Assembly: GCA_020250175.1 (NCBI GenBank)
Contig: JADCEN010000001.1
Span: 10,996 to 74,995 of the forward strand
DNA from: Rhodobacter sp.
GTDB lineage: Bacteria > Pseudomonadota > Alphaproteobacteria > Rhodobacterales > Rhodobacteraceae
Reading direction: 5' to 3'
Length of the DNA stretch: 64,000 bases
Shown here one piece after another: positions 235-41,917 of the stretch (the stretch's first letter is position 1; each line of letters begins with the position of its first letter). The position numbers and the translations under genes are program-made. The notes under the pieces are model-generated. The model made no database searches. It saw only the letters and a program-made list of their open reading frames with translations, and was not told the origin of the DNA.

Positions 235-1092
235 TCAAGGGGAAGGTGCCAGTGGCACCGTTGCGAAGGCGGCAACCCGGCCCAGCCATCCGGTCACCAC
301 CGCAAGGGCCTCGGGTTCGTCCAGAAACGGAATGTGCCCGCGCAAGGGAATTTCGGCGAACAGCATGTCGGGGCGGCGGCGGCACATTTCCTCGGCGGTG
401 GCGCGGCTCAGCACGTCCGATGCAGCCCCCCGGATCAGCGCCAGCGGCAGCCCCGCACAGCCGTCGAACAACGGCCATAGCTCGGGCAACGGCCCGGCCA
501 AGGCGGCGTCGAAGGCGGTGCGCAACGCGGGGTCATAGGTCAGCCCGACCCCGTCGTCGCGCTGAATATAGTGGCGCACGGTTTCCTCCTGCCAGCGCAT
601 CGGGGGCACGCGCTCGAACCCCGGCATGGCCGTCTGCATCCGGTCGGCCACTTCCTGCAGCGTCGGCACGGTCGGCTCGACGCCCACATAGGTACCGATC
701 CGCAGCAGGCCGTCGCGCTCCAAAATGGGACCAACGTCGTTCAGGCACAGTCCCAGCAGGCGATGCTTCGCGGTCGCTGCGATGACCATTCCCAACAACC
801 CGCCGCGCGAGGACCCGATGATGGCGGCACGCGCGATGCCCAGATGGTCGAGCAGCGCCAGCGCGTCGGTCGCTTCCTGCCCCACGGAATAGGTTGCGGG
901 CCCGGTCCAGTCAGACTCGCCCCGGCCACGACTGTCGAGCCGGATCAGACGCACATCCTGCGGCAGATACCGCGCCAGATAGTCGAAGTCGCGGCTGTCG
1001 CGGGTCAGCCCGGCAAGGGCCAGAACCGGCAGCCCAAGCCCGTCATCCCGATAGGCAAGCCTTGCGCCATCGCCCGCCCTGAAGGTCTTCAT
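235..1092 (-). CDS. Alpha/beta-fold hydrolase
   Basis: 285-aa ORF with the nucleophile elbow IIGSSRGG (G-x-S-x-G) and typical abhydrolase_1/6 sequence. It is the last gene of the minus-strand operon, 18 nt after hbd. Confidence 0.8.
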   Translation of the reverse strand: MKTFRAGDGARLAYRDDGLGLPVLALAGLTRDSRDFDYLARYLPQDVRLIRLDSRGRGESDWTGPATYSVGQEATDALALLDHLGIARAAIIGSSRGGLLGMVIAATAKHRLLGLCLNDVGPILERDGLLRIGTYVGVEPTVPTLQEVADRMQTAMPGFERVPPMRWQEETVRHYIQRDDGVGLTYDPALRTAFDAALAGPLPELWPLFDGCAGLPLALIRGAASDVLSRATAEEMCRRRPDMLFAEIPLRGHIPFLDEPEALAVVTGWLGRVAAFATVPLAPSP

Positions 1093-1110
1093 CCGTCCCT
1101 CCTTCGGGGG

Positions 1111-1971
1111 TCAGCGCGGCGGATAGTCGAAAAAGCCCTTGCCGGTCTTGCGACCAAAATACCCCGCCGAAACCATCTGCTTCAAAAGCGGGCTGGGACG
1201 ATACTTGGGGTCGTCGAACCCATGATACAGGGTTTCCATGATGTTCAGCACCACATCAAGCCCGATCAGATCCCCCAGGGCCAGCGGCCCCATCGGGTGG
1301 TTGGCCCCGAGTTTCATCATGCTGTCGATGTCCTCGGGCGTGGCCAGCCCCTCGTAGACGCAGTTGATCGCCTCGTTGATCTGCGGGGCCAACAGCCGGT
1401 TGACGATGAAGCCGTAGCTGTCCTTGCTGACGCGCGGGGTCTTGCCGATGGCACGGGTCAGGTCGGTCACCGCCTCGGCCACCGGATCGGTGGTCTGCAA
1501 AGCGCGGATGATCTCGACCAGTTGCATCACCGGGACGGGGTTGAAGAAGTGCATTCCGATGACCCGCCCCGGATGGGCCGAGGCGGCGGCAAGTTCGGTC
1601 AGCGAGATCGACGAGGTGTTCGAGGCAAGGATAGCGTCCGGGCGGCAGATCCCGTCAAGCAGCTTCAGCACGCCCGCCTTGACGTCCAGCCGCTCGACGA
1701 TGGCCTCGATCACGATATCGCAGTCGGCAAGCTGGTCCAGCGCCGTGGCGGTTGCGATGCGGGCGGTTGCCTCGGCGGCCTGCGCCTCGGTCAGCGTGGC
1801 CTTCTTGACCAGACGCGCGAGGCTGCCCAGCATGCTGGTCCGGGCGCGGTCCAGGGCCGCGTCGGACAGGTCCTGCATCACCACGGGGTAGCCTGCCATC
1901 GCGCAGACCTGGGCAATGCCGCTGCCCATGGTTCCGGCGCCGATAACGCCGACCTTTCGGATTTCGCTCAT
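1111..1971 (-). CDS. hbd: 3-hydroxybutyryl-CoA dehydrogenase
   Basis: Starts MSEIRKVGVIGAGTMGSGIA (Rossmann GxGxxG). The C-terminal half reads ...GFIVNRLL...MKLGANHPMGPLALGDLIGLDV. ATG at 1971; the ORF-track start at 2403 is an upstream extension. Confidence 0.9.
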   Translation of the reverse strand: MSEIRKVGVIGAGTMGSGIAQVCAMAGYPVVMQDLSDAALDRARTSMLGSLARLVKKATLTEAQAAEATARIATATALDQLADCDIVIEAIVERLDVKAGVLKLLDGICRPDAILASNTSSISLTELAAASAHPGRVIGMHFFNPVPVMQLVEIIRALQTTDPVAEAVTDLTRAIGKTPRVSKDSYGFIVNRLLAPQINEAINCVYEGLATPEDIDSMMKLGANHPMGPLALGDLIGLDVVLNIMETLYHGFDDPKYRPSPLLKQMVSAGYFGRKTGKGFFDYPPR

Positions 1972-1982
1972 GATCTGATCCT

Positions 1983-2783
1983 TCAGTGGGCAGTCCAGCC
2001 GCCGTCGACCGGCAGTGCGGTTCCGGTGATCTGGCTGGCGGCGGGGGTGCACAGGAACGCGGCCAGTGCGCCGATCTGGCCCGGCTGGACGAAGCTTTTC
2101 GTCGGCTGGGCGGCCAGCAGCACGTCGCGGATCACCGCGTCCTCGGTGATGCCGCGCGCCTTGGCGGTTTCGGGGATCTGCGCCTGCACCAGCGGGGTCA
2201 GCACATAGCCGGGGCAGATCGCGTTGGCGGTGACGCCGTGCTCCGCACCCTCCAGCGCCAGGGTCTTGGTCAGCCCGACGACCGCGTGCTTGGCCATGAC
2301 ATAGGCCGACTTGTAGGGCGAGGCGACAAGGCCGTGGGCCGAGGCCACGTTGATCACCCGCCCCCAGCCACGCGCCTTCATGCCGCCGAAGGTCGCCCGG
2401 CACAGGTGCCAGGCGGCCGACATGTTGATCGCCATGATCAGGTTGTAGCGGTCGACCGGGAATTCTTCGATCAGTGCGACAGTCTGGATGCCCGCATTGT
2501 TCACGACGATGTCGATCTGCCCGAACCGGGCCGTGGTTGCGGCCACCAGATCGGCGATCTGGGCCGGGTCGGACATGTCGGCGCCGTGGTAGGCAACAGG
2601 CGAGCCCGTCTCGGCCTCGATCGCGCTGCGGTCCGCCTCGATCTGCCCGGCGTCGCCAAAGCCATTCATCATCACGGCATGACCGGCTTCGGCCAGCGAG
2701 CGGGCCACGGCAAGCCCGATCCCCGAGGTGGAGCCGGTCACGATTGCGGTCCGAAAGTCGGGGGCGGCGCGGACATCGGGCAT
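1983..2783 (-). CDS. bdhA: 3-hydroxybutyrate dehydrogenase (SDR)
   Basis: Contains TGSTSGIGLA, NNAG and the YxxxK motif (YVMAKHAV), ending GGWTAH, as in BdhA. ATG at 2783 follows GAGG; the TTG at 2798 is the ORF-track start. Confidence 0.88.
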   Translation of the reverse strand: MPDVRAAPDFRTAIVTGSTSGIGLAVARSLAEAGHAVMMNGFGDAGQIEADRSAIEAETGSPVAYHGADMSDPAQIADLVAATTARFGQIDIVVNNAGIQTVALIEEFPVDRYNLIMAINMSAAWHLCRATFGGMKARGWGRVINVASAHGLVASPYKSAYVMAKHAVVGLTKTLALEGAEHGVTANAICPGYVLTPLVQAQIPETAKARGITEDAVIRDVLLAAQPTKSFVQPGQIGALAAFLCTPAASQITGTALPVDGGWTAH

Positions 2784-2790
2784 GGCAACC

Positions 2791-3447
2791 TCAGGCAAGG
2801 ATCATTTCGGGAACGTCATCGGGCACGATCAGGGCGGCTTCCGTGGCGGCGCGGATATCCCCGACGCTGACGCCGGGCGCGCGCTCGCGCAGGATCAGGC
2901 CCATTCCGGTCGGTTCGATCACCGCAAGATCGGTCACGATCAGATCGACACGCCGCAGGGCGGTCAGCGGCAGAGTGCAGCGGGGAACGATCTTGGATTG
3001 CCCCTTGGCACTGTGCTGCATGGCGACGACCACCCGGGCAGCCCCGCAGACAAGGTCCATCGCCCCGCCCATCCCGGGCACCATCCGGCCCGGTACCTTC
3101 CAATTCGCCAGATGCCCGGATTCGTCAACCTGAAGACCGCCCAGCACGGTCATGTCCAGATGCCCGCCCCGGATCAGGCCGAAGCTCATCGCCGAATCGA
3201 TGCTGGCCGCCCCGGGCACGGCCGATACGAACCCGCCGCCCGCGTCGGTCAGGTGGCGTTCTTCCATCCCTTCGGGCGGGCGGGCACCAAGCCCGATCAC
3301 ACCGTTCTCGGCCTGAAAATACACGCCGAAATCCGAGGATACGAAGTTCGCCACCATCGACGGCAACCCGATGCCGAGGTTTACCAGCGATCCCGGCCTG
3401 ATTTCCCGTGCCACGCGGCGCGCGATGAGTTCCTTGGCGTCCATCAT
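2791..3447 (-). CDS. scoB: 3-oxoacid CoA-transferase subunit B
   Basis: MMDAKELIARRVAREIRPGSLVNLGIGLP...ENG...MVPGMGGAMDL is the classic ScoB/AtoA pattern. GGAGGG Shine-Dalgarno sequence. Confidence 0.9.
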   Translation of the reverse strand: MMDAKELIARRVAREIRPGSLVNLGIGLPSMVANFVSSDFGVYFQAENGVIGLGARPPEGMEERHLTDAGGGFVSAVPGAASIDSAMSFGLIRGGHLDMTVLGGLQVDESGHLANWKVPGRMVPGMGGAMDLVCGAARVVVAMQHSAKGQSKIVPRCTLPLTALRRVDLIVTDLAVIEPTGMGLILRERAPGVSVGDIRAATEAALIVPDDVPEMILA

Positions 3448-3454
3448 GCCCTCC

Positions 3455-4108
3455 TCAGGCCGCGCGGATCAGAAGATGGTCGACCAGAACGCCGGGCGTC
3501 TTGACCGCATCGGGCGGGATCACGCCGACCGGCACGATGCTGTCGGCCTCGGCGATCACCGTACGACCGGCCAGGGCGATGATCGGGTTGAAGTTGTGAG
3601 CGGTCAGCATGTAGCTGAGGTTGCCGACATAATCCGCCTGCCATGCCCCGATCAGCGCAAAGTCGGCTTTCAGCGGGGTTTCCACCAGATAGCGGTTGCC
3701 CTCGACCATGACGATCTGCTTGCCCTCTTCCACCTCGGTGCCGAGGCCGGTCGCGGTCAGAACGCCGCCAAGACCCATGCCGCCCGCACGGATCCGCTCG
3801 ATCAGCGTGCCCTGCGGCACCAGTTCGCAGGTAATCTCGCCCGAGATCATCTTGGCTTGGGTCTCCGGGTTCAGGCCGATGTGGCTGGCGATGACATGGC
3901 TGACCAGCCCGGCCGAAATCAGCTTGCCGATCCCCTTGCCCGGCATGGCGGTGTCGTTGGCGATGACCGTAAGGCCGCCCACCCCCCGCGCCACGATGGC
4001 GTCGATCATCCGTTCGGGCGTGCCGACAGCCATGAAGCCGCCGATCATCAGCCGGGCACCCTCGGGGATCATCCCCGCCGCCGCTTCGGGGCTGAGCGCG
4101 CCTTTCAT
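3455..4108 (-). CDS. scoA: 3-oxoacid CoA-transferase subunit A
   Basis: MKGALSPEAAAGMIPEGARLMIGGF...GKGIGKLI...CELVPQGTLIERIRAGG. The ATG at 4108 overlaps the ackA stop (ATGA). Confidence 0.9.
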   Translation of the reverse strand: MKGALSPEAAAGMIPEGARLMIGGFMAVGTPERMIDAIVARGVGGLTVIANDTAMPGKGIGKLISAGLVSHVIASHIGLNPETQAKMISGEITCELVPQGTLIERIRAGGMGLGGVLTATGLGTEVEEGKQIVMVEGNRYLVETPLKADFALIGAWQADYVGNLSYMLTAHNFNPIIALAGRTVIAEADSIVPVGVIPPDAVKTPGVLVDHLLIRAA

Positions 4109-5283
4109 GCCGCATCCTCCATCAGGCCCACCGCCGCGCGTGCGGCCCGGGCGATCACCAGTTCCTCGTTGGTCGGAATGACCATGACCGTGGTCCGGGC
4201 AAGATCGGTCGAGATCACCGGATCGTTCGCCGCGTTTCGCCCGTAGTCGATGTCGATCCCCATCCAGCCCAGCCGCTCGCAGATGCGGGCGCGGACCGCG
4301 CGCGAGTTCTCGCCGATGCCGCCGCAGAAGATCAGCGCATCGATCCCGCCCAGCACGGCGGCAAGACCGCCGACCTCGCGCTGGCAGCGGAACACGAAAT
4401 GCTCGATTGCCTGTGCGGCTTCGGGTGTATTCGCCGCTTCGAGCGTGCGCATGTCGTTCGACAGGCCCGACAGGCCCAGCAGCCCCGACTGGCGGTACAA
4501 AAGATCGGAAATCTGCGCGGCCGTCATGCCCTTCTGGTCCATCAGATACAGCAGAACACCCGGATCGACCTGACCGCAGCGCGTGCCCATCGGCAGGCCG
4601 TCCAGCGCCGTGAACCCCATGGTCGAGGCCATCGAGCGCCCGTTCTGCAGCGCGCACATGCTGGCACCATTGCCCAGATGCGCCACGATCACCCGGCCCT
4701 CGGCCAGATGCGGCGCACGGCGGGCCAGTTCGCCCGCGATGTAGCCATAGCTGAGGCCATGAAAGCCGTAGCGGCGCACGCCTTCGTCATAGAGCGCCCG
4801 CGGCAGGGCGAAGCTGTCGCTGACCCAGGGGTTGGTGCGGTGAAAGGCGGTATCGAAACAGGCGACCTGCGGCACGCCCGGAAAGGCCGCCATCGCCGCG
4901 CGGATACCCGCAAGGTTGTGCGGCTGATGCAGGGGCGCAAAAGGCGTCAGACGCTCCAGTTCGGCCAGCAGGTGTTCGTCAACGATGGCAGGTTTCGCAT
5001 GGTGCGCGCCGCCATGCACCACACGGTGCCCGATGGCGCAGAGGTCGAGATCGGGCCAATGGGCACGAAAGCAGTCCATCACGGCGGTTATGGCACCTTC
5101 ATGGGTGGTCAAATCGCCGGTGGAGGCCAGGGCCACGCCCTGGGCATCTTTCAGCTTCAGCACGCCGTCCGGTCCGATCCGGTCGGCAAGGCCCGAGGCG
5201 AGCGGCATATCTCCGGTTTCGGGAAACAGCGCCACCTTCAGCGACGACGACCCGGCATTCAGCGTCAGGACGGCCCGTGTCAT
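4105..5283 (-). CDS. ackA: Acetate (acyl) kinase
   Basis: MTRAVLTLNAGSSSLKVALF...HRVVHGG...RYGFHGLSY...HLGNGAS...EELVIAR. The ATG at 5283 overlaps the stop of the upstream gene. Confidence 0.9.
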   Translation of the reverse strand: MTRAVLTLNAGSSSLKVALFPETGDMPLASGLADRIGPDGVLKLKDAQGVALASTGDLTTHEGAITAVMDCFRAHWPDLDLCAIGHRVVHGGAHHAKPAIVDEHLLAELERLTPFAPLHQPHNLAGIRAAMAAFPGVPQVACFDTAFHRTNPWVSDSFALPRALYDEGVRRYGFHGLSYGYIAGELARRAPHLAEGRVIVAHLGNGASMCALQNGRSMASTMGFTALDGLPMGTRCGQVDPGVLLYLMDQKGMTAAQISDLLYRQSGLLGLSGLSNDMRTLEAANTPEAAQAIEHFVFRCQREVGGLAAVLGGIDALIFCGGIGENSRAVRARICERLGWMGIDIDYGRNAANDPVISTDLARTTVMVIPTNEELVIARAARAAVGLMEDAA

Positions 5284-6668
5284 TTCGCAACCCCGGTCGG
5301 GACCCCGGCGAAATGATGGATCGCCGCCACCGCACAGGACGCCAGCCGCGACATCGGGCTGTCGGACCGCGAGTTCAGGATCACCGGCACCTTTGCACCC
5401 AGCACCAGACCAGCGCCTTCGGCATGACTCATGAACGACAGCTGCTTGGCCAGCATGTTGCCGGCATCCAGCCCCGGCATCACAAGAATGTTGGCCCGCC
5501 CGGCAACATGTCCGGTCAGCCCCTTGGTGCGCGCCGCTGCCATGTCCACTGCATTGTCCATGGCCAGCGGCCCTTCGACCTGGCCGCCGGTGATCTGGCC
5601 CCGGTCGGCCATCTTGGACAGCAAGGCGGCATCGATCGAAGACTGGATCGCCGGGTTCACCGTTTCCACCGCCGACAGCACACCGACGCGCGGGTCCATC
5701 CCGAGGGACCGCGCAAGGTCGATGGCGTTCTGGCAAATGTCCACCTTGGTCAGAAGGTCCGGCGCGATGTTGATCGCGGCATCGGTGACAAGCAGGGGCT
5801 CGGGCTGGCCCGGCACATCCATCACGAACACATGGGTAAACCGCCGTCCGATCCGCAGACCCTTCGTCTTGTCCAGCATCGCGCGCAACAGATCGTCGGT
5901 GTGCAGATGCCCTTTCATGACGGCGGCAGCCCGGCCTTCATGCACCAGCGCACAGGCCCGTTCCGCCGCCGCTGCATCGCCGGCAACGTCGATCACCTCG
6001 ATCCCCGCCAGATCGGCCCCCATATCCGCCGCGGCCTTGCGGATCGCCGCCTCGTACCCAATCAGGATCGGCAGGATGATGCTTTCCTTCGCCGCCAGCA
6101 GCGCGCCGCCAAGCGAGTTCGCCTCGTCAGGGCAGACCACCGCCGTTGGAATTGCGGCCAGCGGGCGGGCACGTTCCAGCAGCGCCTCAAAATGACGATG
6201 ACGCTGCACGATCAGGCCGGGCACTTCGATGTCGTCGCGGTCGAACGTTTCGGTCGGGGCCAGAACGTCGGCCTCGCCGGTCAGGATCAGGGCATGATCG
6301 GCGATGCGGTGCACGTCGGTCTTCAGCCGGACATGGCCATCGGCCTTCGACAGCACTTCGGCCCGCACGACAACCTCGTCGCCGGCATGGGCGCGGGCAT
6401 GGAAATCAAGGACCTGACGGCGGTAAAGGGTCCCCGGACCGGGCAGCCTGGTGCCCAGTACCGCCGAGATCAGCGAGGCCACGAACATCCCCGGAGCGAC
6501 CCGCTCGGAAATGCCGTCACCGTTCAGATCGCTGGCCTGCAGGTGCATCGGGTTGGTGTTTCCCGAGGCCACCGCGAAGACATAGAGATCATCCGCCGTG
6601 ATCAATCTGCGCAGTTCGGCGACATCGCCGACCTGCAGCGCGTCATAGGTCCGGTTTACCAGATGCAT
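5280..6668 (-). CDS. Bifunctional MaoC-like (R)-hydratase / phosphate acyl(acetyl/butyryl)transferase
   Basis: The N-terminal ~140 aa form a hot-dog MaoC fold (NTNPMHL...PGMF). The C-terminal ~320 aa are Pta/Ptb-like (VVCPDEANSLGGA...VTDAAINIAPD...GPLAMDNA). Confidence 0.85.
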   Translation of the reverse strand: MHLVNRTYDALQVGDVAELRRLITADDLYVFAVASGNTNPMHLQASDLNGDGISERVAPGMFVASLISAVLGTRLPGPGTLYRRQVLDFHARAHAGDEVVVRAEVLSKADGHVRLKTDVHRIADHALILTGEADVLAPTETFDRDDIEVPGLIVQRHRHFEALLERARPLAAIPTAVVCPDEANSLGGALLAAKESIILPILIGYEAAIRKAAADMGADLAGIEVIDVAGDAAAAERACALVHEGRAAAVMKGHLHTDDLLRAMLDKTKGLRIGRRFTHVFVMDVPGQPEPLLVTDAAINIAPDLLTKVDICQNAIDLARSLGMDPRVGVLSAVETVNPAIQSSIDAALLSKMADRGQITGGQVEGPLAMDNAVDMAAARTKGLTGHVAGRANILVMPGLDAGNMLAKQLSFMSHAEGAGLVLGAKVPVILNSRSDSPMSRLASCAVAAIHHFAGVPTGVAK

Positions 6669-6669
6669 T

Positions 6670-9354
6670 TCAGTTCCCGAGTTTGGCCGGCAGGGTCGCC
6701 GGAGACTTTCGACGGCTTCCGGTTGCCCCGCTGACCGGCGCGGGGGTTTCGGCGGGTGCCGTGTCGATGACCGGGGCAGGGTCGATCACGGCGGCCAGTA
6801 CCGGGGGCACAGACTGAACCGGCGGAACTGTCTCGGTCGGAAGCATCGCTTTGATCGGATGCGCGGCCTCGGGTCCGGTCGCCGACCCGGGGTCAGTCGC
6901 AGTCACCAAGGCCGGTGCCAGCGGGTCTCCCAGCACGTCGCCGGTGACGGGCGGCAGGCCAAGAACTTCGTGGAACCGCTGCAAAAGCGAAAGCGTGTGC
7001 GGCGACATTTCCTCGATCACGCCCGGTATGAACTGCACCACCTGCACGGCCAATTCGCGGTCAGCCGGATCGGGCAATAGCAGCGGCAGCGTTTCGATCG
7101 CGCGCTCGGGCTCGAAGGTCGCGATCAGGGTCTGCTGATGGATCATCATCGCGCGACGATCCGCGCCCAGGCTGCGGAAGGGCTCGTCTTGCGTCAGAAC
7201 CTGGGCCGACCGTTCCAGCCGGTCGCGACGTACCTGGCCGCGGTTCTCGGCCAGCAGGACCAGCATGCGGATGACAGCCTCGGCGAAACCGCCCTGTTCC
7301 ATGGTCATCAGGGCGTTGGCCACTTCCGGCAGGCCGCGCAGCTCGCCTTTGGTCTTCAGGGTGCGACGCGCCTCGTGGGTGCGCCCGAAAGCGCGTGCCC
7401 AGGGTGTGCCCCACATCGCGTAGAACATCAGTTCGTTGTTCATGTCGCGGGTATCGCGGAGGAAGTCGATCATGTTCTCGGTGGTCTGCACCCAGAAGGC
7501 TTCCATTGCGAGGAACGGATTGGTTGCGGCAGCCTTGTGGCGGTCGGCCTTTACCTTTTCTGCTGCCGTGATCACGCCATGCATCATCGGGTTGCGCGTG
7601 GCCACCAATGCCCGCGTCAGCCGGTTGGGGTGCATCGCGCGGCCGATTTCGGCGGAACTTTCGGTGACCAGCGCCTTGACCATCGGACGCAGCAGCGTGT
7701 CGTACATCTGTGCCTGAATCTCGGCCATCCGGGCCACGGCGGCAAACGGGCGCTCGTCGCCGACGGTATCGTCCAGCGCGCGGATATCGTCGAAATTGCG
7801 CTCGGTGAAGCCTACGGTAAAGTGCTTGGCACCATCCCTTTCGGTCACATCCTCGATGGTCATCTCATAAAGACCGGGGGCCAGAGCCTCGATGGTCTTA
7901 AGCGTCGAGGCAACCTCGGAATGCTCCTTCCTGGCGATCTGCGACGATACGAATATGCCCAGATGCCCGACCTGTTCATGCACCATGTAGACGATGCGCT
8001 GGCCGCGGATGCGGATTTCGTTCACATCCGCATAGGTCTCGCAGATCCAGTTCAGTGCCTGCTGCGGCGGGGTGATGTTGTCGCCGTGGCTGGCAAAGAC
8101 GATGATCGGCGCGCGGATCGCCTTCAGGTCGATCGGGCGGCCCGGCTCGATCCGCGCCTCGTTCTTGACCAGCCGGTTGCCGACGAACAGCTGCTCGACG
8201 ATCCAGCGGATTTCCGGCTCGGTCATCAGGAAGAACCCGCCCCACCACTTCTCGAATTCCAGGAAGGTGGTATCGCCCTTGTCGATGTCGCGGAACAGGT
8301 CGGTGTATTTGCGGAACAGCGTGCGACCGGGGTTCAGATTCTCGAAGTTCTGAACCAGATGCGCGCCGTCGAAGATGCCGCCGCCCAAGTCCGACAGGAA
8401 CATCGGAATCCAGGTGCCGCCCATCACGCCCGCAGAATAGCGCATCGGGTTTTCCCCGACTTTGCCCGCCCACGGGGCCACGGGCGCACCGTTGATCACG
8501 ACGGGGCCGGTCAGATCGGGGTTGGTCGCGGCCAGCAGCAGCGTCGCCCAGCCGCCCTGGCAATTGCCGGTGATGACGGGCTTTGAGGCGTTCGGATGCC
8601 GCCGCATAACTTCGCGCACGAACGCGGCTTCGGTGCGGGTGACATAGGACAGAAACTGCCCCGGCTCGGGTTCGCGGCGGAAGGCGACGAAATAGACCTG
8701 GTGACCGGCAGCCAACGCCACGCCCACCTGGCTGTCTGACTTGAAGCCGCCGATGCCGGGGCCGTGACCGGCGCGCGGGTCGATGATGATGTAGGGGCGG
8801 CGGCTGTCATTGATCGTGACGCCTTCGGGCGGGATGATTTTCAGCAGCATGTAGTTCGACGGATAGGCCATGTCCTTGCCGTCCATGACCACTTCGTAGT
8901 CATAGATCAGCACCGGCGGGCAACCTGCCGCCTCATGCTCCAGAAAAACGTCGCCGCGCTTTCGCAGCGTGTCCGTCGTCAGGATCATGCGTTCCCAGGC
9001 GTCGCGCAGGTATTCGGCATAATCCGAACTGATGCGCCCCTCGGACTGCGCCTTGCGCAGATCCTCTATCAGGGTCTTGGCCCGTTCCACCGCCTCTTCG
9101 GCGCGGCGCGAATGGGTCTCTGTGATGCGGGCGGACTGGCGTTGCGCCGCCATCGACAGGATGGTGTAGCTCTCTGAACCGGCCTCGATCTCGGATTCGG
9201 ACAGCGCCATGCCCCTGCGCATCGCGGCAAGCATGTCGTCTTCGGCACTCGGAACCGGGCTTTGGCGGGACGGGTCGAACAGATCGAAGATGCTGGCCAC
9301 GGCTGATACCCCTTCAGGCAGTAATGGAAAAACCGCCGTCGATGTCATGGACAC
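6670..9354 (-). CDS. DUF3141-family alpha/beta-hydrolase-like protein with a Cys lipase-type box and a Pro/Ala-rich tail
   Basis: 894-aa ORF. G-N-C-Q-G-G is encoded at 8551-8568. Candidate Asp (ASHGDNITP) and His ([10 protein letters not shown]) lie downstream. The start is uncertain: 9354 overlaps the fabI remnant by 41 nt. Confidence 0.8.
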
Positions 9355-10078
9355 CGCCGGTCAGGTTGCGGGCCTCGGACGAGGCGAGAAATGCGGCCAT
9401 CGCCCCCACATCCATGATCGTGGCCAGTTTCTGGGTCGGCGCGCGGTTTTCCGCCGAGGCCAGCAGCTCGTCGAATTGGTCGATGCCGCTGGCGGCGCGG
9501 GTCTTGAGAGGGCCGGGTGACAGCGCATGCACGCGGATGCCCTGTTCGCCCAGTTAGGCGGCGGCATAGCGGACCGTGCTTTCAAGTGCGGCCTTCACTG
9601 GCCCCATCATGTTGTAATGCCGCACCACGCGCGACGCGCCGAAAAAGCTGACCGACAGGCAGCAGCCGCCGTCGGGCATCAAGGGTTCGGCCAGCCGGAT
9701 CATCCGCAAAAAGGAATGCACCGAGATATCCATGGCCAGCCCGAACCCCTCGGGCGAGCAGTCGATCACACGGCCATGCAGGTCATCGCGGGGCGCAAAG
9801 GCGATGGAATGCAACAGCGTATCCAGCCGCCCCCACCGGTCGGCGATCTGATCGAACACCGCCTCAAGCTGGCCGGCCTGGCCTACGTCGAGCGGCAACA
9901 TGATCTCGGCCTCAAGTTCCTCGGCCAGCGGGCGCACGAAGCGCTCTGCCTTGTCGTTCAGCCAGGTCACGGCCAGATCGGCCCCCTGGGCCTTCAGCGC
10001 CTTGGCACAGCCCCAGGCAATGGACTGTTCGTTCGCGATACCGACAACCAGCGCCTTCTGACCTTCAAGAGAAAACAT
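9314..10078 (-). pseudogene. fabI: Enoyl-ACP reductase FabI interrupted by an in-frame TAA
   Basis: ORFs 9554..10135 and 9314..9532 share one frame. The read-through is ...KAALESTVRYAAA*LGEQGIRVHALSPGPLKTRA..., a contiguous FabI sequence. The stop is at 9556-9554. The likely start is MFSLEGQKALVVG at 10078. Confidence 0.75.
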
Positions 10079-10417
10079 GACCCGCATCCCCTCGTATGGC
10101 GACAGCTTTGCAGATGCAGCATGACCAGTTGTCATGTCGTTCGAGTATCAGGAGCTTGACGCTTGAATGAACGCCCGCCTTTGCTGCAGCCGGGCGCACG
10201 GTCTGCAGCAACCGATCCGATGAACGCCCGACCGGCAACGGATTGCATCAGTTGCGGCATGACGTGCAGCGCAAAGAGGGTGCCCGACAGGCGCTTTGGC
10301 AAGACCGCAAGTTGCGGTGAAAGCAAGCCGAGAAAGGATGCCGCCGCATCACGTCACGGAACCGATACGCGCAGTGCATGCCTGAAACTGTTTGGATCTT
10401 TGGGTTGGGAGTTCAGA

Positions 10418-10795: not shown

Positions 10796-10960
10796 CAGAT
10801 GCACAGCGACGATCCTGGCCCGGGGCAACGCCAGGGCAGCAGGTGTATCGGCTGGCGACGCGCGGCAAATGAGCAGGTTCCGTCCCTTGCAATACTGATA
10901 TACTGCCTTGGGGGCCGTCTTTGGGCGGCAGGCGTTGCAAGCGGTTGGAGGAGCGTGGCC

Positions 10961-12187
10961 ATGCGGCAGACCTGGCGTTGGTTCGGACCGAAGGATATGG
11001 CATCGACGGACGACATGATGCAGGCGGGTGTCGAGGGCGTGGTCTCTGCGCTGCACCACGTGCCAACCGGCGCGGTCTGGACGCCTGAAGAAATCGCTGC
11101 CCGGCAATATCTGGTCGCGCGGATGAAGGACGGAACGCCTTCAACCCTGAAATGGGAAGTGGTGGAGAGCCTGCCGGTGTCCGAGGACATCAAGAAACAG
11201 AAGGGCGATTGGCGCGCGCATATTGAAAACTGGAAGACCAGCATGACCAACCTGCACCGTGCGGGCCTGGATGTGATCTGCTACAATTTCATGCCGGTCC
11301 TGGACTGGACGCGCACCGACCTGGCCTGGCGGCTGCCGAACGGGGCAACCTGCATGCGGTTCGACTTTATCGACTTTGCCGCATTCGACCTTTTCATCCT
11401 GGAACGGCCCGGCGCCGTCGAGGAGTATCCCGGGCCCGTTGCCGAAGCTGCGGCGCGGCGATTTGCCGACATGGATGATGACACACGAAAGGCGATCACG
11501 GCCAATGTCGCCTTTGGGCTGCCCGGTGCTGCATCAACCATGACGCTGGCCGACATCCGCGCGCATCTGGCCGGGTATGGGTTGATTTCGGCCGAGACGC
11601 TGCGCAGACATCTGGTGGATTTTCTGGCTGAAGTGACGCCGCTCGCGCAAGAGCTGGGTATGCGGATTTGCTGCCATCCCGACGACCCGCCGTTTTCCTT
11701 GCTTGGCCTGCCCCGCATCATGTCAACCGAAGCTGATTACCGCGCAGTGCTGGATGCGGTGGATCTGTCGGCAAACGGGGTGACGTTCTGCACCGGATCC
11801 TTCGGTGCCCGGGCCGACAACGACTGCCCCGCGATGATGAGAAGGCTGGGTCCGCGGGTGCATTTCATCCACCTTCGCAATGTCCGCCGCGAGGGTACCG
11901 CCCTGCGCGACAGTTTCCACGAGGCGGAGCATCTTGGCGGCGACACCGACATGGTGGCGGTGATCGCAGCCATCCTGGCCGAGGAACGGCGACGCCGGAC
12001 CGAAGGCCGGCAGGATTCCAGCATTCCGTTCCGCCCTGATCACGGGCAGGACATTCTGGATGATCTGGGGCGCAAAGGACAGCCGGGCTATCCCACCATC
12101 GGGCGGCTGAAGGGGCTGGCCGAACTGCGCGGAATCATGACCGCGCTGGATCATCCGCTGGTGACAGGTGCCAACGCCTCCGCCTGA
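10961..12187 (+). CDS. uxuA: Mannonate dehydratase
   Basis: Starts MRQTWRWFGPKD, the UxuA signature N-terminus. 408 aa, with GGAGGAG Shine-Dalgarno sequence upstream of the ATG at 10961. Confidence 0.9.
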   Translation: MRQTWRWFGPKDMASTDDMMQAGVEGVVSALHHVPTGAVWTPEEIAARQYLVARMKDGTPSTLKWEVVESLPVSEDIKKQKGDWRAHIENWKTSMTNLHRAGLDVICYNFMPVLDWTRTDLAWRLPNGATCMRFDFIDFAAFDLFILERPGAVEEYPGPVAEAAARRFADMDDDTRKAITANVAFGLPGAASTMTLADIRAHLAGYGLISAETLRRHLVDFLAEVTPLAQELGMRICCHPDDPPFSLLGLPRIMSTEADYRAVLDAVDLSANGVTFCTGSFGARADNDCPAMMRRLGPRVHFIHLRNVRREGTALRDSFHEAEHLGGDTDMVAVIAAILAEERRRRTEGRQDSSIPFRPDHGQDILDDLGRKGQPGYPTIGRLKGLAELRGIMTALDHPLVTGANASA

Positions 12188-12429
12188 ATTGCAGGGGCAG
12201 GGGCAGGGTCGGCCATTGCGGTCTCATCGTCTGCCCGGGATGCAGAACCGGCAGAAACTGAAGCCCTGATCGCTGCCGGTGCCTGAAGTGCAGAACGGCA
12301 CCCGCCAGGGCTTTCTGCCGTTCCGGATTTCCCTGTGGCGGGAAAGCCGGGAAGTTTGATCCTTTCGGGCCGCCGGCCGGGGTCTGGCGGTTGCAGACCA
12401 TCCCCGTTCCAGGGGACCCTCTTGGGATT

Positions 12430-13227
12430 TCACACCTCACGGCCGTTCACATAGGTATCCAGCACCGATCCGGCATCGGTGGAAAAGTAGTCGCGGCGCT
12501 CGACGATATGGCGGCGGATCATGGTGAAGACCCGGTCGATATGCACTTTCATGGCCTCGGCGGCCTGATCGGGGTCGCGCAGCTTCAACCCGTCGACGAC
12601 TGCGATATGCTCGCGCAGCACCACGTCAAGGTGACTGGGCAAGGGAATGGACAAACGCCGCACCCGGTCCAGCTGGGCCTTGGCGCCGTTGATGATCTTC
12701 CAGATATACGCCGATGCACCAAAGGCGCAGATCATCGAATGAAAGGCCTCGTCCAGCGCGTAGAAGCCGTCATAGTCCTGATCGGCTGCCATGCGCTTTT
12801 GCTGGTGTATGTTGAAGTCGATCGCCCGTTCAAAGTGGGGGGTCATGCGGCTGGCGGCCAGACGGACGACCTTCAGTTCCAGCGCGTCACGCACCAACTG
12901 GCCGTCAAACACCGACTGCAGATCGATCTTCGAGACATAGGTCCCGGAATTGGGCACGACCGACACCAGGTTTTCTGCCTGCAATTGCAGGATCGCTTCG
13001 CGCAGGGGTGTGCGGGAGATGCCAAGCTGCTTGCAGATCAGCTTTTCGTTGACGTTGCTGCCCGGTGCCAGATGCAGGTTCACAATGGCATCGCGCATGA
13101 TCCCGTAGACCTGTGCCGTCTTCGGAAGGGCGGGGTCGATCTTGCTGATCAGTTCAGAAGGCAGACCCGGTATGCCGGCGTCGGACCTGTCCCCGACCTG
13201 CGGGTCTTGCTTCCTGGGTCGAGCCAT
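12430..13227 (-). CDS. GntR-family (FadR/FCD-type) transcriptional regulator
   Basis: Winged HTH ...EKLICKQLGISRTPLREAILQLQAENLV... followed by an all-helical FCD-like C-terminal domain. ATG at 13227 with GAGGAAGG Shine-Dalgarno sequence. Confidence 0.85.
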   Translation of the reverse strand: MARPRKQDPQVGDRSDAGIPGLPSELISKIDPALPKTAQVYGIMRDAIVNLHLAPGSNVNEKLICKQLGISRTPLREAILQLQAENLVSVVPNSGTYVSKIDLQSVFDGQLVRDALELKVVRLAASRMTPHFERAIDFNIHQQKRMAADQDYDGFYALDEAFHSMICAFGASAYIWKIINGAKAQLDRVRRLSIPLPSHLDVVLREHIAVVDGLKLRDPDQAAEAMKVHIDRVFTMIRRHIVERRDYFSTDAGSVLDTYVNGREV

Positions 13228-13354
13228 CTTTCCTTCCTCGGGATCGCCGTCCTGATAGCCTTGGGTGGCCCCCTTGGCAATCGTCGGGCTGGTCGCCCTT
13301 TGAGTCCGCTGCTTGACGGCCCAGGTGCCCGGCATTCGTTGACAGGCATTGAAT

Positions 13355-13368
13355 ACCAATATATTGGT
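13355..13368. promoter_or_regulatory. Perfect 14-bp palindrome ACCAATATATTGGT, a candidate GntR operator overlapping a TTGACA / TATATT promoter-like pair
   Basis: Lies in the divergent spacer between the GntR gene and the SDR gene. TTGACA is at 13339-13344. Related copies are at 16820-16833 and 10891-10906. Confidence 0.4.
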
Positions 13369-13513
13369 TGAAGATCAAGTTCGTGATCGCGGAACTGTCA
13401 AGGTCTGAGCGGTCTGCCAGGCCAGGATCTGCGGTTCCGTCTCGCGGGTGATCCGACCGGGTCGGTCCAGAACCGGGGGTATGGACAGGAACGTTGAGGG
13501 GTGGGACCAGAAG

Positions 13514-14245
13514 ATGACACTCACCGGCAGGGCCGCCCTGACAACGGGTGCTGCGGGTGCTGTCGGCAGGGCAAAGGCGCGCCTGCCGTCACAGGCTGGG
13601 GCGCGGCTGGTGCTGGCCGACATGGTCAGGGGTCCGACAGAAGACCTGTCACGCGAAGGTGGCGGTCTGGCGGTTCAGGCAGATTTGTCCGACCCGACCG
13701 CAGTGCCATGTATGGCGGCAAGCGTGCCGGGTCAGGTGGGGCGCATCGACATCTTGGTCAAGAATGCAGGCGTCCTGAACACCGCCAAGATCGCGGCCAC
13801 CACACCGGAGGAATGGCACCGGGTCCAAAGCATCAACATCGATCCCGCGTTCCTTCCGTCGCAGGCCTTCCTGCCCGGTATGCGCGCTGCGCACTGGGGG
13901 CGCGTGATCAACCTGTCGTCCTATGCGGCAAAGTCCGGCGGGCTGACCGCAGGCACTGCATACGCGGTCTCGAAGGCGGCGATGATCGGGCTGACCATTT
14001 CTATCGCGCGCGAAGTGGCGGGCAAAGGGGTGACGGCAAATGCGATTGCGCCCGCCTGTATGATGTCGCCGATGGTTTCCGAACAGCTCACTGCTGCGCA
14101 GCGGCAGACGCAGCTGGCGGCAATCCCGGTGGGCCGCTACTGTGAACCCGAAGAAGTCGCACATGCGGTGACGTTCCTGGCGTTCCCCCCTTGCAGGCTT
14201 CATCACCGGCGAGGTGATCGAGATGAACGGAGGACTGCATTTTGA
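13514..14245 (+). pseudogene. SDR oxidoreductase whose last ~18 codons are frame-shifted
   Basis: Contains NAG and SxnYxxxK motifs. After the C6 run (14185-14190) the annotated frame reads PPCRLHHRRGDRDERRTAF. The +1 frame reads the conserved SDR tail PLAGFITGEVIEMNGGLHF. Confidence 0.6.
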
Positions 14246-14571
14246 CCAAGTATGGAATGGTCATCCGCCTGAAACCAGACTGCGTCGCGCAGTACAGGCG
14301 CCTGCATGCCGACGTGTGGCCAGGCGTTCTGGACGCGATGCGCCGCAATGGCTGGCGCAATTTCGACATCTTCCTGAAGGAACCCGAAAACCTTCTGTTC
14401 GGCACGTTCGAATATCACGGCAACGATTTCGCGGCAGCAGCCCAGGCAATCGGCACCGACCCCGAGACACAGCGCTGGCTGCGTGAAACCGATCCCTGTC
14501 AGGAACCCTTCGCCACGCGCAGGCCCGGTGAATGGTGGGCCTACATGGACAACATCTTTCACATGGACTGA
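14242..14571 (+). CDS. L-rhamnose mutarotase family protein
   Basis: MTKYGMVIRLKPDCVAQYRRLHADVWPGVLDAMRRNGWRNFDIFLKEPENLLFGTFEYHG...EWWAYMDNIFHMD, about 110 aa. TTG start at 14242. Confidence 0.85.
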   Translation: MTKYGMVIRLKPDCVAQYRRLHADVWPGVLDAMRRNGWRNFDIFLKEPENLLFGTFEYHGNDFAAAAQAIGTDPETQRWLRETDPCQEPFATRRPGEWWAYMDNIFHMD

Positions 14572-14574
14572 CTG

Positions 14575-15117
14575 ATGTTTCCCGCCATCGGCGCATCTCA
14601 CCCTTTCCGGGACCCGAACGCCGGAGACTGTCCTTGCATGGTCGAGCCGTCCGCACCGATCCGCAGGCCTTTTGCGCCTGAAGACCTGGCCCCCCTGCTG
14701 CGCCCGGCGGCCGCGCTGAAAACCGCAAGGGCCTTGACCGACCTGCGCTTTATGATCGACCACATCGCCAAGCCGGAGATCGCGAAATCCGCGTTCGACG
14801 TGTGGGCCAAACGGATGCGGCCGTCCGGTGCGCAGCCCAACCTCTGGCGCAAACTTTCGGGGATGGGGACGAAGGCGGACCGGGCCATCTGGACCGAGGG
14901 CGACAACACCCCCTGTATCGCCAGGGTCTTGCGCATCTTCGGACAGCGCCGCTGTCTGATGGGCCCCGACCGGTCGGTCTGCCTGCTTGCCGCCGATTGC
15001 CAAAGAACCGTCATGCCGGTGCGCAAGGCCAGCGCGCGTCTGCCCAAACCCGATCATCGCGCCTTTCTGAGGGATGTCGCAGCCAGGCTTTGTCGGCTGG
15101 CCAGGGGACGGTTATGA
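14575..15117 (+). pseudogene. Decayed amidohydrolase-2 (L-fucono/rhamnono-lactonase type) with an internal deletion and lost metal ligands
   Basis: 180 aa, against about 280-290 aa for the family. The N-terminus AIGASHPFRDP...RRPFAPEDLAPLL matches IDAHQHFW...RDFLPEDLAPLL with HxH lost. It jumps directly to RFMIDHIAKP...KLSGMGTKADRAIWT...GPDRSVCLLA, where the family has GSDWPVCLL. Confidence 0.6.
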
Positions 15118-16580
15118 CAAGGCTTTCCCGGCCCACCCTCGACCAGCTTCCAAAGGCTGTCGCCCGGCCGCGCTATGACCGGGCAGCCCTGCGCACCGGC
15201 ATCCTGCACCTTGGCCTTGGCGCGTTTTGCCGTGCGCATCAGGCGGCCCTGACGGAAGACTGCCTGAATGCCGGAGCGACGGAATGGGGAATGGCGGCGG
15301 CTTCGCTGCGGTCGTCGGACACGCGCGATGCGCTGGCACCGCAAGATGGGCTTTACACCCTGGCCTTGCGCGAGAATGAAAACCAGTCGATCCAGGTGAT
15401 CGGAGCAATCGGGCCGATGTTCGTGGCACCGCAGAACCCCGGCGCCCTGCTTGCGGGAATGTCCGATCCGGATGTGCGGATCGTTTCGCTGACGGTAACC
15501 GAAAAGGGCTATACCGCCGATGTCGCGACGGGCGACCTGCGGCTGGACAACCGCGATGTGCAGCACGACCTGGCGCATCCCGAGGCACCGCGCACGGCGC
15601 TGGGGTTCGTTCTGCGGGCGCTGGCGCTGCGGCGTGCAGCAGGAACACCGCCCTTCACGGTTCTGTCCTGCGACAACCTGCCGGGCAACGGGCACTTTCT
15701 GCGGCGTGCGCTGGTGCAGTTCGCCGAAGCCGCCGATCCGGCCCTTGGCCGCTTCATTGCAGATGACGTGGCCTGCCCGTCCTGCATGGTTGACCGCATC
15801 GTCCCCGCCACGACCGGGGCCGACCGGGCCATGGTGGCACACCGTCTGGGGATGCAGGACGCCTGGCCTGTACTGGCCGAACCCTTCTTTCAATGGGTGA
15901 TCGAAGACCGCTTCCCCAGCGGCCGCCCGGAATGGGAACGCTCGGGTGCCGAGTTCGTTGCCGACGTGGCCCCGCATGAAGCAATGAAGCTGCGCCTGCT
16001 GAACGGTGCGCATTCGACGATTGCCGCCATGGGCCGGGTGGCAGGGCTGGCCACCGTGGCCAAGGCGGTGGCCGATCCGGCAATCCGCGCCACGATCCGC
16101 GCCTGTTGGGCCGAGCTTGCACCAACCATCGCACCGGGCATCGACGTTGCAGGATATACGGCGCGGCTTCTGGCCCGGTTCGACAACGCTGCGCTGAACC
16201 ACAGATGTGCCCAGATCGCCACGGATGCCAGCCTGAAGCTGCCGCAAAGGATCGTCGCCCCGCTGCGCGAGCTGCACTCCAAAGGCCGGGCAACACCGAT
16301 GCTGACCTTTTCGCTGGCTGCATGGATCCGGTCCTGTCAGGGACAGGACGAAACAGGCGCAGCGATGCCGCTGTGCGATCCGCAACTGGAGACGTGGACC
16401 GGGCGGCCCGGACCCGGCGTTCCGGTGGATCAGACTGTCCGCGCCTTCGCCGGGTTCGCTCCGGTCTTCGGGCCGGGGCTGGAGCCGGACCTGGCAGCCT
16501 CCGTCCGGGAAGCTCTGGCAGATATGCGGACCTTCGGGATTCTGTCTGCCGCAAGACGCCGCCTTTCCGGCGCGTCCTGA
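15114..16580 (+). CDS. uxuB: Mannitol-dehydrogenase-family oxidoreductase (fructuronate/D-mannonate oxidoreductase-like)
   Basis: 488 aa. GILHLGLGAFCRAHQA...VSLTVTEKGY...SCDNLPGNG...MVDRIVP...KLRLLNGAHS. Lies near uxuA. The ATG at 15114 overlaps the preceding stop. Confidence 0.8.
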   Translation: MTRLSRPTLDQLPKAVARPRYDRAALRTGILHLGLGAFCRAHQAALTEDCLNAGATEWGMAAASLRSSDTRDALAPQDGLYTLALRENENQSIQVIGAIGPMFVAPQNPGALLAGMSDPDVRIVSLTVTEKGYTADVATGDLRLDNRDVQHDLAHPEAPRTALGFVLRALALRRAAGTPPFTVLSCDNLPGNGHFLRRALVQFAEAADPALGRFIADDVACPSCMVDRIVPATTGADRAMVAHRLGMQDAWPVLAEPFFQWVIEDRFPSGRPEWERSGAEFVADVAPHEAMKLRLLNGAHSTIAAMGRVAGLATVAKAVADPAIRATIRACWAELAPTIAPGIDVAGYTARLLARFDNAALNHRCAQIATDASLKLPQRIVAPLRELHSKGRATPMLTFSLAAWIRSCQGQDETGAAMPLCDPQLETWTGRPGPGVPVDQTVRAFAGFAPVFGPGLEPDLAASVREALADMRTFGILSAARRRLSGAS

Positions 16581-16819
16581 TCCGACCCCAGTCAAGGGAT
16601 CGTTCCTTGACCCGCCGTGTTGGCGACACCGGCCTGTGGTTGACCGGGCCCAGCTTTCGCGGCGGCGGGCCTGGCACACCCCTGAAGCCTGACGCGCAAT
16701 GCGCCGTCTTCTGCGCAACGTGCCAAACCGCAACGGCCGCGTTTCAACGCGATTGCCAAAGGTTAAGGGACTCCGCTGTTTTCCGAAGCGCGGGAAAGAA
16801 AACGGTTGCAAGCCAAGAA

Positions 16820-16833
16820 TCCAATATATTAGT
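16820..16833. promoter_or_regulatory. TCCAATATATTAGT, a near copy (12/14) of the 13355 palindrome, upstream of the ABC operon
   Basis: Sits in an AT-rich patch 45 nt upstream of the SBP start codon. Confidence 0.3.
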
Positions 16834-16877
16834 ATTATTAATGCGCCAAGAACACTTTTTCCTCGGGAGGGAACCCA

Positions 16878-17903: not shown

Positions 17904-17928
17904 GGCGACCCCCTGCCTTGCAAGCCTG

Positions 17929-17970
17929 GCGGCGGCCGCCTGCCCAAGGTTGGCCGCCGCATCCTTTTTT
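17929..17970 (+). terminator. Rho-independent terminator/attenuator after the SBP gene
   Basis: GCGGCGGCC (17929-17937) pairs with GGCCGCCGC (17952-17960), followed by a T6 run at 17965-17970. Confidence 0.6.
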
Positions 17971-17989
17971 CCGATCAGGAACCGCATCG

Positions 17990-21521: not shown

Positions 21522-21522
21522 C

Positions 21523-41896: not shown

Positions 41897-41917
41897 CCGG
41901 CGGTTGCCGTTATAAAA

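Follow-up and report, generated by a model that had tools for sequence, protein, structure and literature searches.

Several described systems resemble the gene cluster analyzed here. Summers, Denton and McDermott reportedly described, in 1999, an orfA-pta-ackA-fabI operon of Sinorhizobium meliloti that is under PhoB control and provides Pta and AckA activities. PhaZa1 of Ralstonia eutropha is said to carry a Cys-Asp-His triad and to thiolyze polyhydroxybutyrate (PHB) with coenzyme A (CoA), a finding attributed to Uchino et al. in 2007. In 2015, Sznajder, Pfeiffer and Jendrossek reportedly found two further proteins, A0671 and B1632 of R. eutropha H16, on PHB granules, with deletion slightly slowing mobilization; both are said to be alpha/beta hydrolases with a "PHB synthase/depolymerase signature" encoded beside ackA/pta, and we take them to be DUF3141 proteins. 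Liu and Steinbuchel are reported to have engineered, in 2000, a pathway of butyrate kinase, phosphotransbutyrylase (Ptb), and class III polyhydroxyalkanoate (PHA) synthase. Here we analyze a window of 64,000 nt of Rhodobacter sp. DNA (contig JADCEN010000001.1 of assembly GCA_020250175.1; all coordinates are those of the window), in which the gene for a DUF3141 protein belongs to a run of nine genes that also encodes a MaoC-Pta fusion, an AckA-like kinase, and enzymes of ketone-body metabolism. The PHB link of the DUF3141 family is already published, as is the core operon (1999), and the window adds one more member; the new details from the present analysis are the loss of the catalytic Asp from MaoC in the fusions and the assignment of the transacylase to the butyryl type.

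The S. meliloti-type operon holds the same four core families as the window. Its copy on pSymA of S. medicae comprises DUF3141, a phosphate acetyltransferase, an acetate/propionate kinase, and FabI, and these proteins are 41-58% identical to those of the window. The original prediction had named the S. meliloti operon as a relative, and the S. medicae layout bears this out, the orfA-type gene being the DUF3141 gene. The differences lie in arrangement and extent: the Sinorhizobium core runs DUF3141-pta-ackA-fabI, whereas the order in the window is fabI-DUF3141-MaoC/Pta-ackA, with fabI first and broken by a stop codon; the Pta of the window has an N-terminal MaoC-like domain; five genes (scoA, scoB, bdhA, hbd, and a hydrolase gene) are appended; and PhoB control is only weakly suggested. 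The large open reading frame (ORF) had been thought obscure. In fact, its Cys-Asp-His triad has already been described in print, and so has its occurrence alongside PHB genes; a 2024 classification groups DUF3141 with PhaC 5hz2 as C-D-H enzymes, and one genome note labels a DUF3141 protein phaZ.

The DUF3141 protein and its predicted fold

Gene families were called with Pfam, NCBIfam, and related profile models (TIGR, PRK). The protein encoded at 6670-9300/9354 on the minus strand matched PF11339 with an E value of 4e-223 (742.6 bits against a cutoff of 29.7) over profile positions 1-555 of 582, which places it firmly in the DUF3141 family, as proposed earlier. The length proposed with it, 894 amino acids (aa), did not stand: that reading starts at a GTG within fabI, and the database gene call is 876 aa long, starting at a GTG at 9300 with a GAAGGGG Shine-Dalgarno sequence upstream. 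The protein contains, all encoded on the minus strand, a GNCQGG nucleophile elbow at 8551-8568 with Cys247 (876-aa numbering; Cys265 in the 894-aa reading), an HGDNITP motif at 8068-8088 with the candidate catalytic acid Asp407, and a VGHLGIF motif at 7951-7971 with the catalytic His446; the Cys box lies exactly where it had been reported, and the two other motifs were likewise found downstream of it.

The family is large, with more than 8,000 close candidates and, at an E value of ≤1e-3, 3,150 clusters at 50% identity. To place these residues in it, we counted motifs in 80 full-length representatives, with per-site aligned totals of 73 or 81. The elbow reads G-N-C-Q-[AG]-G-W across the family. 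Of the aligned representatives, 66/73 have the Cys, 79/81 have Asp407, and 77/81 have His446; an alignment of 50 sequences shows no variation at Asp or His and retains Cys in at least 90%. The exceptions at the Cys position are fragments, two Arg variants (GNRQ), and one Ser variant (GNSQA), and the Cys-less members (proteins P0160, P0137, and P0244) may be natural variants, pseudo-enzymes, or sequencing errors. The PhaC-style Cys box and the Asp and His partners guessed for it are thus near-invariant across the family.

The same residues align one for one with the triad of PHA synthases. The class III PhaC model TIGR01836 matched DUF3141 with an E value of 1.3e-10 (40.8 bits against a cutoff of 365.3), a tblastn search with DUF3141 touched an annotated class III phaC gene, and when the DUF3141 family profile was compared with the whole PDB, PHA synthase was the sole match. 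An hhalign comparison with class III PhaC gave a probability of 98.2% over 257 columns and paired GNCQGG with GICQGG, GDNITPP with DDHIIPP, and GHLGIFVS with GHIGLFVS. In the C. necator enzyme, Asp407 aligns with Asp480, and it has an aligned Asp counterpart in the A. caviae enzyme as well. Neither PhaC_N (PF07167) nor PHB_depo_C (PF06850, the PhaZa family) matched DUF3141 even at an E value of ≤10, and no gene for a PhaE partner was found in the operon or among the recurrent neighbors of 78 loci.

Structure prediction agreed with the profile comparisons. In the AF2 model of DUF3141 (pLDDT of 86.4, pTM of 0.84), Cys247 lies between a strand (residues 242-246) and a helix (248-259), as in a nucleophile elbow, and the predicted triad occupies the canonical positions after strands beta5, beta7, and beta8, with Asp and His after the last two core strands. 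From the N terminus, the model shows long helices (19-124); an alpha/beta-hydrolase core (~135-470) that is PhaC-like and whose helical cap is inserted at ~286-373 as it is in PhaC; a beta-hairpin; a C-terminal domain made up of helices (517-780); and a Pro/Ala tail (802-876) that is disordered. In a Foldseek search of the PDB, the top 12 matches were all PHA synthases (E values of 1.5e-8 to 2.5e-7), ahead of generic hydrolases. When the C-terminal helical region (residues 500-800, window 6901-7803) was modeled alone, it reached a pLDDT of 89.8; Foldseek matched it to no solved structure below an E value of 0.07 and to nothing phasin-like, the nearest being a marginal match over ~120 residues to the TerB-like PG1108 (2h5n, E of 0.075).

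Together, the profile alignments and the predicted structure show DUF3141 to be a distant PHA synthase homologue with a PhaC fold and a Cys-Asp-His triad. Like the class III (TIGR01836) and class I (5HZ2, 5T6O, 5XAV, and 9KNJ) enzymes, it combines an alpha/beta-hydrolase core and a helical cap with an aligned G-x-C-x-G-G box, Asp, and His. Unlike them, it has neither PhaC_N nor a PhaE partner, is only about 15-28% identical, carries coiled helices of its own at the N terminus and a helical domain of ~280 residues at the C terminus, and has Asn after the catalytic Asp, where the synthases have His. DUF3141 would also resemble PhaZa1 as an alpha/beta hydrolase with a Cys nucleophile, and CoA ester products of the PhaZa1 kind would suit the Ptb, AckA, and Hbd proteins encoded downstream, but it lacks the PF06850 match. 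Because a Cys triad is common to synthases and a thiolytic depolymerase, the triad does not set the direction of the DUF3141 reaction.

Operon partners and conservation of the cluster

The gene following DUF3141 (5280-6668, minus strand) encodes a MaoC and PTA_PTB fusion (PRK08190, 595 bits; PF01515, E of 1e-37). By profile and by closest structure, its transacylase domain (~5280-6200) is of the butyryl type: Ptb models scored 249-288 bits, classical Pta models reached only 58-85 bits, and the best PDB match was Ptb (7vg9, E of 2e-56), with Pta at ~1e-13. The other domain (~6204-6668) is a MaoC/PhaJ-like hot-dog domain homologous to PhaJ (5cpg, E of 2e-24; 1iq6, E of 8e-15) in which the catalytic Asp is replaced by Asn39; the motif reads SGNTNPMH (6540-6566), so that the Asp of G-D-x-N-P-x-H is Asn while the His is retained. 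Every fused MaoC-Pta homologue recovered among loci L001-L080 has SGNxNPxH in place of SGDxNPxH. The production of crotonyl-CoA by MaoC for use by FabI, which we had considered as a firm step, was downgraded after this substitution was found.

The fusion gene is part of a run of nine minus-strand genes (235-10078) in which each junction is a gap of at most 18 nt or an overlap, and all of the genes in the originally described run are present and match their families. They are transcribed in the order fabI, DUF3141, MaoC-Pta fusion, ackA, scoA, scoB, bdhA, hbd, and alpha/beta hydrolase. Read from the hydrolase to fabI, the junctions are gaps of 18, 11, 7, and 7 nt, two ATGA overlaps (including that of the ackA start with the end of the Pta gene), a 1-nt gap, and a 13-nt gap; translation is coupled across all nine genes. 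A promoter/terminator scan of the region gave nothing above chance, terminator-like sites inside the operon included, and an Rfam scan of the region gave zero matches. Downstream of the fusion, ackA (4105-5283) encodes an acyl kinase of the acetate/propionate family (PF00871, E of 1e-116; PRK07058, 446 bits). The ketone-body set that follows consists of ScoA (3455-4108; CoA_trans, E of 6e-58; TIGR02429, 204 bits against a cutoff of 129) and ScoB (2791-3447; TIGR02428, 282 bits against 244), the A and B subunits of 3-oxoacid CoA-transferase; BdhA, an (R)-3-hydroxybutyrate dehydrogenase (1983-2783, with a TTG at 2798 as an alternative start; TIGR01963 PHB_DH, 353 bits against 307); and Hbd, an NAD-dependent (S)-3-hydroxybutyryl-CoA dehydrogenase (1111-1971; 3HCDH_N and 3HCDH; PRK05808, 416 bits against 408), all four scoring above their curated family cutoffs. 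The last gene (235-1092) encodes a 285-aa alpha/beta hydrolase (Abhydrolase_6/Abhydrolase_1) with a G-S-S-R-G-G serine box; it has weak, subthreshold similarity to PcaD and to an intracellular scl-PHA depolymerase model, and its closest PDB match is the uncharacterized 3bwx.

The first gene of the operon, fabI (9314-10078, with alternative starts at 10087 and 10135), encodes an enoyl-ACP/CoA reductase paralogue (adh_short_C2 and FabI models) of a distinct FabI subgroup (PRK07533). It had been called broken, and the break is real, but a frameshift was ruled out: a single in-frame TAA at 9554-9556 interrupts a frame that otherwise reads through, and the database gene call is split into 174 and 72 aa. 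Since all 62 of 62 relatives have Glu at this position, the stop is either a GAA-to-TAA change or an assembly error, and fabI here is accordingly either a fresh pseudogene or the product of an assembly or sequencing error. The only other contig with an identical DUF3141 protein carries the same fabI split; as it probably derives from the same assembly, the stop may still be a sequencing or assembly error.

We next examined the best 80 of 492 genomic DUF3141 matches, counting partners in the 59 of these loci that had enough flanking sequence. Beside DUF3141 we found fabI in 45/59 loci, AckA in 43/59, and MaoC-Pta, always with the MaoC domain present, in 42/59, so that fabI, DUF3141, MaoC-Pta, and AckA form a conserved core in about 70-76% of the loci. 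The ketone-body genes join it less often (ScoA in 26/59, ScoB in 25/59, Hbd in 12/59, and BdhA in 6/59), and a small serine hydrolase is present in 18/59. All nine genes occur together in 4/59 loci and additionally in L003, L021, and L047, whose flanks are too short to count; the ketone-body extension of the core is common in Paracoccaceae. Distant core copies, those of beta- and gammaproteobacteria among them, are 37-45% identical; Sinorhizobium, Caballeronia, and Halomonas carry such copies, and on a Cupriavidus replicon the order is pta-ackA-scoA-scoB-fabI-DUF3141. The module is therefore kept well beyond the source strain, and chance adjacency was ruled out because the same gene order recurs across 59-80 loci in three proteobacterial classes.

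Some loci have further features. In eight (L020, L022, L023, L059, L065, L068, L070, and L075), a biodegradative Orn/Lys/Arg decarboxylase gene adjoins the DUF3141 cluster, sometimes with a GNAT acetyltransferase, which recalls the lxa locus of Burkholderia cenocepacia, which also holds a lysine decarboxylase. Methyloceanibacter (L037/L038) carries two DUF3141 paralogues less than 8 kb apart, ~60% and 48% identical to the window protein, one of them within a fabI-DUF3141-MaoC/pta-ackA unit. Short forms of DUF3141 (~560-610 aa) that lack the C-terminal helical domain occur in copper/metal-stress islands on plasmids of Halomonas, Roseovarius, Paraburkholderia, Acidovorax, and Variovorax (L083, L086, L087, L088, and L089), where the neighbors include P-type ATPases, DUF2933 and DUF5676 proteins, and members of the isoprenylcysteine carboxyl methyltransferase, MBL-fold, thymidine phosphorylase, and PRPP-kinase families.

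PHB links in other genera and candidate control sites

Genes for PHB metabolism accompany parts of the module in other genera. In Pseudomonas, islands with class I phaC contain DUF3141 together with phaR and phaP, to which Pseudomonas aeruginosa adds pta, ackA, and fabI (10.1101/2025.03.12.642780). Cobetia and Halomonas have fabI, bi-pta, and ackA downstream of phaC1 (PMC8686332). On a plasmid of Halomonas sp. KO116 (L083:6938-13064), we found DUF3141, a 111-aa hypothetical gene, ackA, MaoC-pta, and a class I PhaC with PHBC_N, PhaC_N, and Abhydrolase_1 domains, all in one direction; that DUF3141 and a true PhaC bracket ackA/MaoC-pta argues for complementary rather than redundant roles. These three settings share with the window DUF3141 and/or fabI-MaoC/pta-ackA in the company of a PhaC-fold enzyme. 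They differ from it in that the PHB islands and clusters hold phaC, phaP, phaR, phaA, and phaB, whereas the window and its close relatives hold ketone-body catabolic genes instead.

PhaR boxes are predicted for the Bradyrhizobium diazoefficiens operon blr3456-blr3459, whose four genes encode a hypothetical protein, Pta, AckA, and a further product, and in a phaR mutant expression of this operon rises by a log2 value of 7.2 (PMC10888616). In B. cenocepacia, ackA and phaB are induced 75- to 224-fold together with genes for a class I PHA synthase and a phosphate acetyl/butyryl transferase as part of the low-oxygen lxa locus (PMC3721108). The four core genes are co-induced by root exudates in two rhizobia (PMC5789663), and both 3-hydroxybutyryl (3HB)-CoA and crotonyl-CoA are obtained from native PHB granules (PMC4823750, citing Eggers and Steinbuchel 2013). 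The links to PHB through regulation and co-occurrence come from other genera.

Upstream of fabI, the window has a candidate control region (10134-10273, minus strand) with Pho-box-like half-sites and a TGC-N3-GCA palindrome. The half-sites, CGTTCAT/GCGTCAA/CTGATAC/ACGACAT at 10134-10173, are phased at 11 bp and weak (8-9 of 14 matches). Among relatives, Pho-like 18-mers (≥10/14) lie just upstream of fabI in 14/50, compared with 3/250 distal windows; S. medicae, used as a positive control, reached only 9/14 at its best match, so the simple Pho consensus is a weak tool. The palindrome, TGCGCTGCA at 10265-10273, has a form that we take to be that of the PhaR box of Rhodobacter. It occurs upstream of fabI in 9/50 relatives against 1.8 expected (L021, L027, L036, L039, L044, L045, L046, L061, and L062), often as CTGC-N3-GCAG followed by an A-rich stretch, and these palindromes are possible PhaR boxes. 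Motif matches of this kind make Pho or PhaR control of the operon in the window suggestive only.

Elsewhere in the window, a pstS-pstC-pstA-pstB-phoU-phoB operon (56820-63083) lies 47 kb from the cluster, and directly upstream of pstS is a clear Pho box of four repeats phased at 11 bp (CCGTCAC/CTGTTAC/TCGTCGC/CTGTCGC, 56820-56862). Two further Pho-box-like 18-mers are CGGTCAGGCGTCTGTCAT at 19497-19514 (plus strand, 12/14) and CCGTTATAAAACCGTCAT at 41907-41924 (plus strand, 11/14). The genes sampled upstream of the operon, at 10799-22632, encode a mannonate dehydratase, a GntR/FCD-type regulator, a fructuronate reductase, an ABC sugar permease and ATPase, and a galactarate-type dehydratase, and this stretch is a sugar-acid catabolic block unrelated to PHB. 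No PHB genes were found among the genes sampled at 10.8-26 kb, which belong to sugar-acid catabolism or transport or had no strong match, or among ten other scanned ORFs, including those of pst-phoU-phoB.

Possible roles of the operon

We asked what reaction sequence would best accommodate these observations. In the reading that we tentatively prefer, although we give it somewhat less than an even chance, the operon would mobilize PHB and conserve the energy of its ester bonds, combining the four-gene core (fabI, DUF3141, a MaoC-Ptb fusion with altered MaoC, and AckA) with a lineage-specific extension of scoAB, bdhA, hbd, and the serine hydrolase gene. DUF3141 would be a granule-directed acyl-enzyme whose Cys takes a 3-hydroxybutyryl unit, or a short oligomer, from PHB or from the ends of 3HB oligomers and hands it to CoA, giving 3HB-CoA by a thiolysis like that of PhaZa1. 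The butyryl-type phosphotransacylase would then exchange CoA for phosphate, and the AckA-like kinase would yield ATP and the free acid. BdhA and ScoAB would return free 3-hydroxybutyrate to acetoacetyl-CoA, while Hbd would oxidize any (S)-3HB-CoA formed via crotonyl-CoA. An intact FabI could reduce crotonyl-CoA to butyryl-CoA as a sink for NADH, after which Ptb and the kinase would produce butyrate and ATP. Under limiting respiration or phosphate, the module would in this way draw ATP from stored polyester by substrate-level phosphorylation. This chemistry, from acyl-Cys through CoA thioester and acyl phosphate to ATP, is inferred; the PhaC homology and triad of DUF3141, the butyryl type of the transacylase, the synteny of the core, and the catabolic character of the partners that join it (scoAB in 25-26/59, hbd in 12/59, and bdhA in 6/59 loci) count in its favor.

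A number of points weigh against mobilization. Oxygen esters store less energy than thioesters or acyl phosphates, so by textbook free energies a net gain of ATP requires strong removal of the product. The scheme as originally put forward leaves FabI, a core member, without an explanation, and a MaoC domain lacking its catalytic Asp weakens the crotonyl-CoA/FabI branch. The expected association with PHB genes stood in part: the links in other genera described above support it, but clustering of 504 flanking ORFs from 78 loci (~4.5 kb) revealed no recurrent phaC, phaZ, phasin, or phaR gene. The bdhA gene accompanies the module in only 6 of the 59 loci, and the five plasmid islands with short DUF3141 hold zero PHB genes. 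The link to phosphate stress, with the induction reported in 1999 and the Pho-like sites, is not explained by a pathway that consumes phosphate. Lastly, it is by synteny only that blr3456 of B. diazoefficiens is probably the DUF3141 gene.

In principle every step can also run backward, so that with ample ATP these enzymes could build 3HB into polymer. This opens a broader form of the mobilization scheme, which we consider doubtful: a reversible polyester-ATP shuttle in which DUF3141 would transfer 3-hydroxybutyryl units between CoA and the chain ends of PHB, Ptb and the kinase would turn them into free acid and ATP, with the flow reversed in energy-rich conditions, FabI would serve as the NADH sink leading to butyrate so that strict respirers ferment their own PHB, PhaR in the presence of granules and PhoB under phosphate stress would provide the switch, and the whole would constitute substrate-level phosphorylation from a storage polymer and a long-sought main route of mobilization in vivo.

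A synthetic role, in which the kinase and Ptb would spend one ATP on converting 3-hydroxybutyrate or other short acids into the CoA ester and DUF3141 would polymerize it, providing a sink for carbon and electrons when oxygen or phosphate is scarce, is unlikely in our estimation. R. eutropha phaC1 mutants are reported to make zero PHB despite retaining their DUF3141 genes. ATP-driven polymerization should be thermodynamically easier than the reverse, and the best alignment of DUF3141, triad included, is with class III PhaC; the operon would then be a natural counterpart of the engineered butyrate kinase/Ptb/class III PhaEC route. Both combine an acyl kinase with a transacylase of the Ptb type and a Cys enzyme resembling class III, but the engineered pathway is artificial and runs in the synthetic direction, and the kinase of the window is of the AckA type, not the Buk type. 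That a true phaC1 takes the place of DUF3141 beside fabI-bi-pta-ackA in Cobetia and Halomonas (PMC8686332) and that a PHA synthase is co-induced with ackA, phaB, and the transacylase in the lxa locus (PMC3721108) also speak for synthesis. However, a bona fide phaC occurs in the same cluster or island as DUF3141, so DUF3141 is not simply the synthase; it has no PhaC_N or PhaE partner and scores far below the synthase cutoffs, and its partners in the window, bdhA, scoAB, and hbd, are catabolic.

Equally improbable, in our assessment, is an ordinary acetate switch, in which Pta/AckA would interconvert acetyl-CoA, acetyl phosphate, and acetate for overflow, acetyl-phosphate signaling, or phosphate stress, DUF3141 would be an accessory esterase or acyltransferase acting on a different lipid or ester, FabI would serve fatty-acid synthesis, and the ketone-body genes would be mere neighbors feeding acetyl-CoA. 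The presence of the same four genes in the S. meliloti-type operon, the enrichment of Pho-box-like sites upstream of fabI in relatives, the co-induction of the four genes by root exudates in two rhizobia (PMC5789663), and the occurrence of short-form DUF3141 without PHB genes are all compatible with such a switch. It is difficult to reconcile with a transacylase that is of butyryl type by every model and by the closest structure, with a DUF3141 that is specifically PhaC-like and not a generic esterase, with the linkage of the module to PhaR and phaC in other genera, and with the translational coupling of all nine genes. A role for DUF3141 as a transacylase on soluble 3HB oligomers, protein-bound or complexed short-chain PHB (cPHB), or another acyl-thioester pool, feeding Ptb/AckA without involving granules, would fit the absence of phasin, phaR, phaC, and phaZ genes near the cluster in 78 loci, the second, small serine hydrolase in 18/59 loci, and the short forms in stress islands, but we consider it very unlikely. 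The settings in Pseudomonas and Halomonas are gene sets of the granule type, and the R. eutropha homologues are reportedly granule-bound.

It is not settled how PHB is mobilized in vivo or whether the ester-bond energy is conserved in the process: known depolymerase mutants have weak phenotypes, and CoA esters are among the degradation products of granules. In hundreds of genomes, a Cys enzyme with a PhaC fold is tied to an acyl kinase and a phosphotransacylase of the C4 type, which offers a concrete route to the hypothesis of an ATP-yielding or ATP-buffering pathway. Even if the mobilization reading fails, the module would remain a useful indicator of a regulon for phosphate or low-oxygen stress. 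If it is true, it would explain the orphan ORF that has stood for 25 years in the rhizobial pta-ackA operon, supply parts for the engineering of PHA turnover, and give a function to a large DUF family of more than 3,000 clusters at 50% identity.

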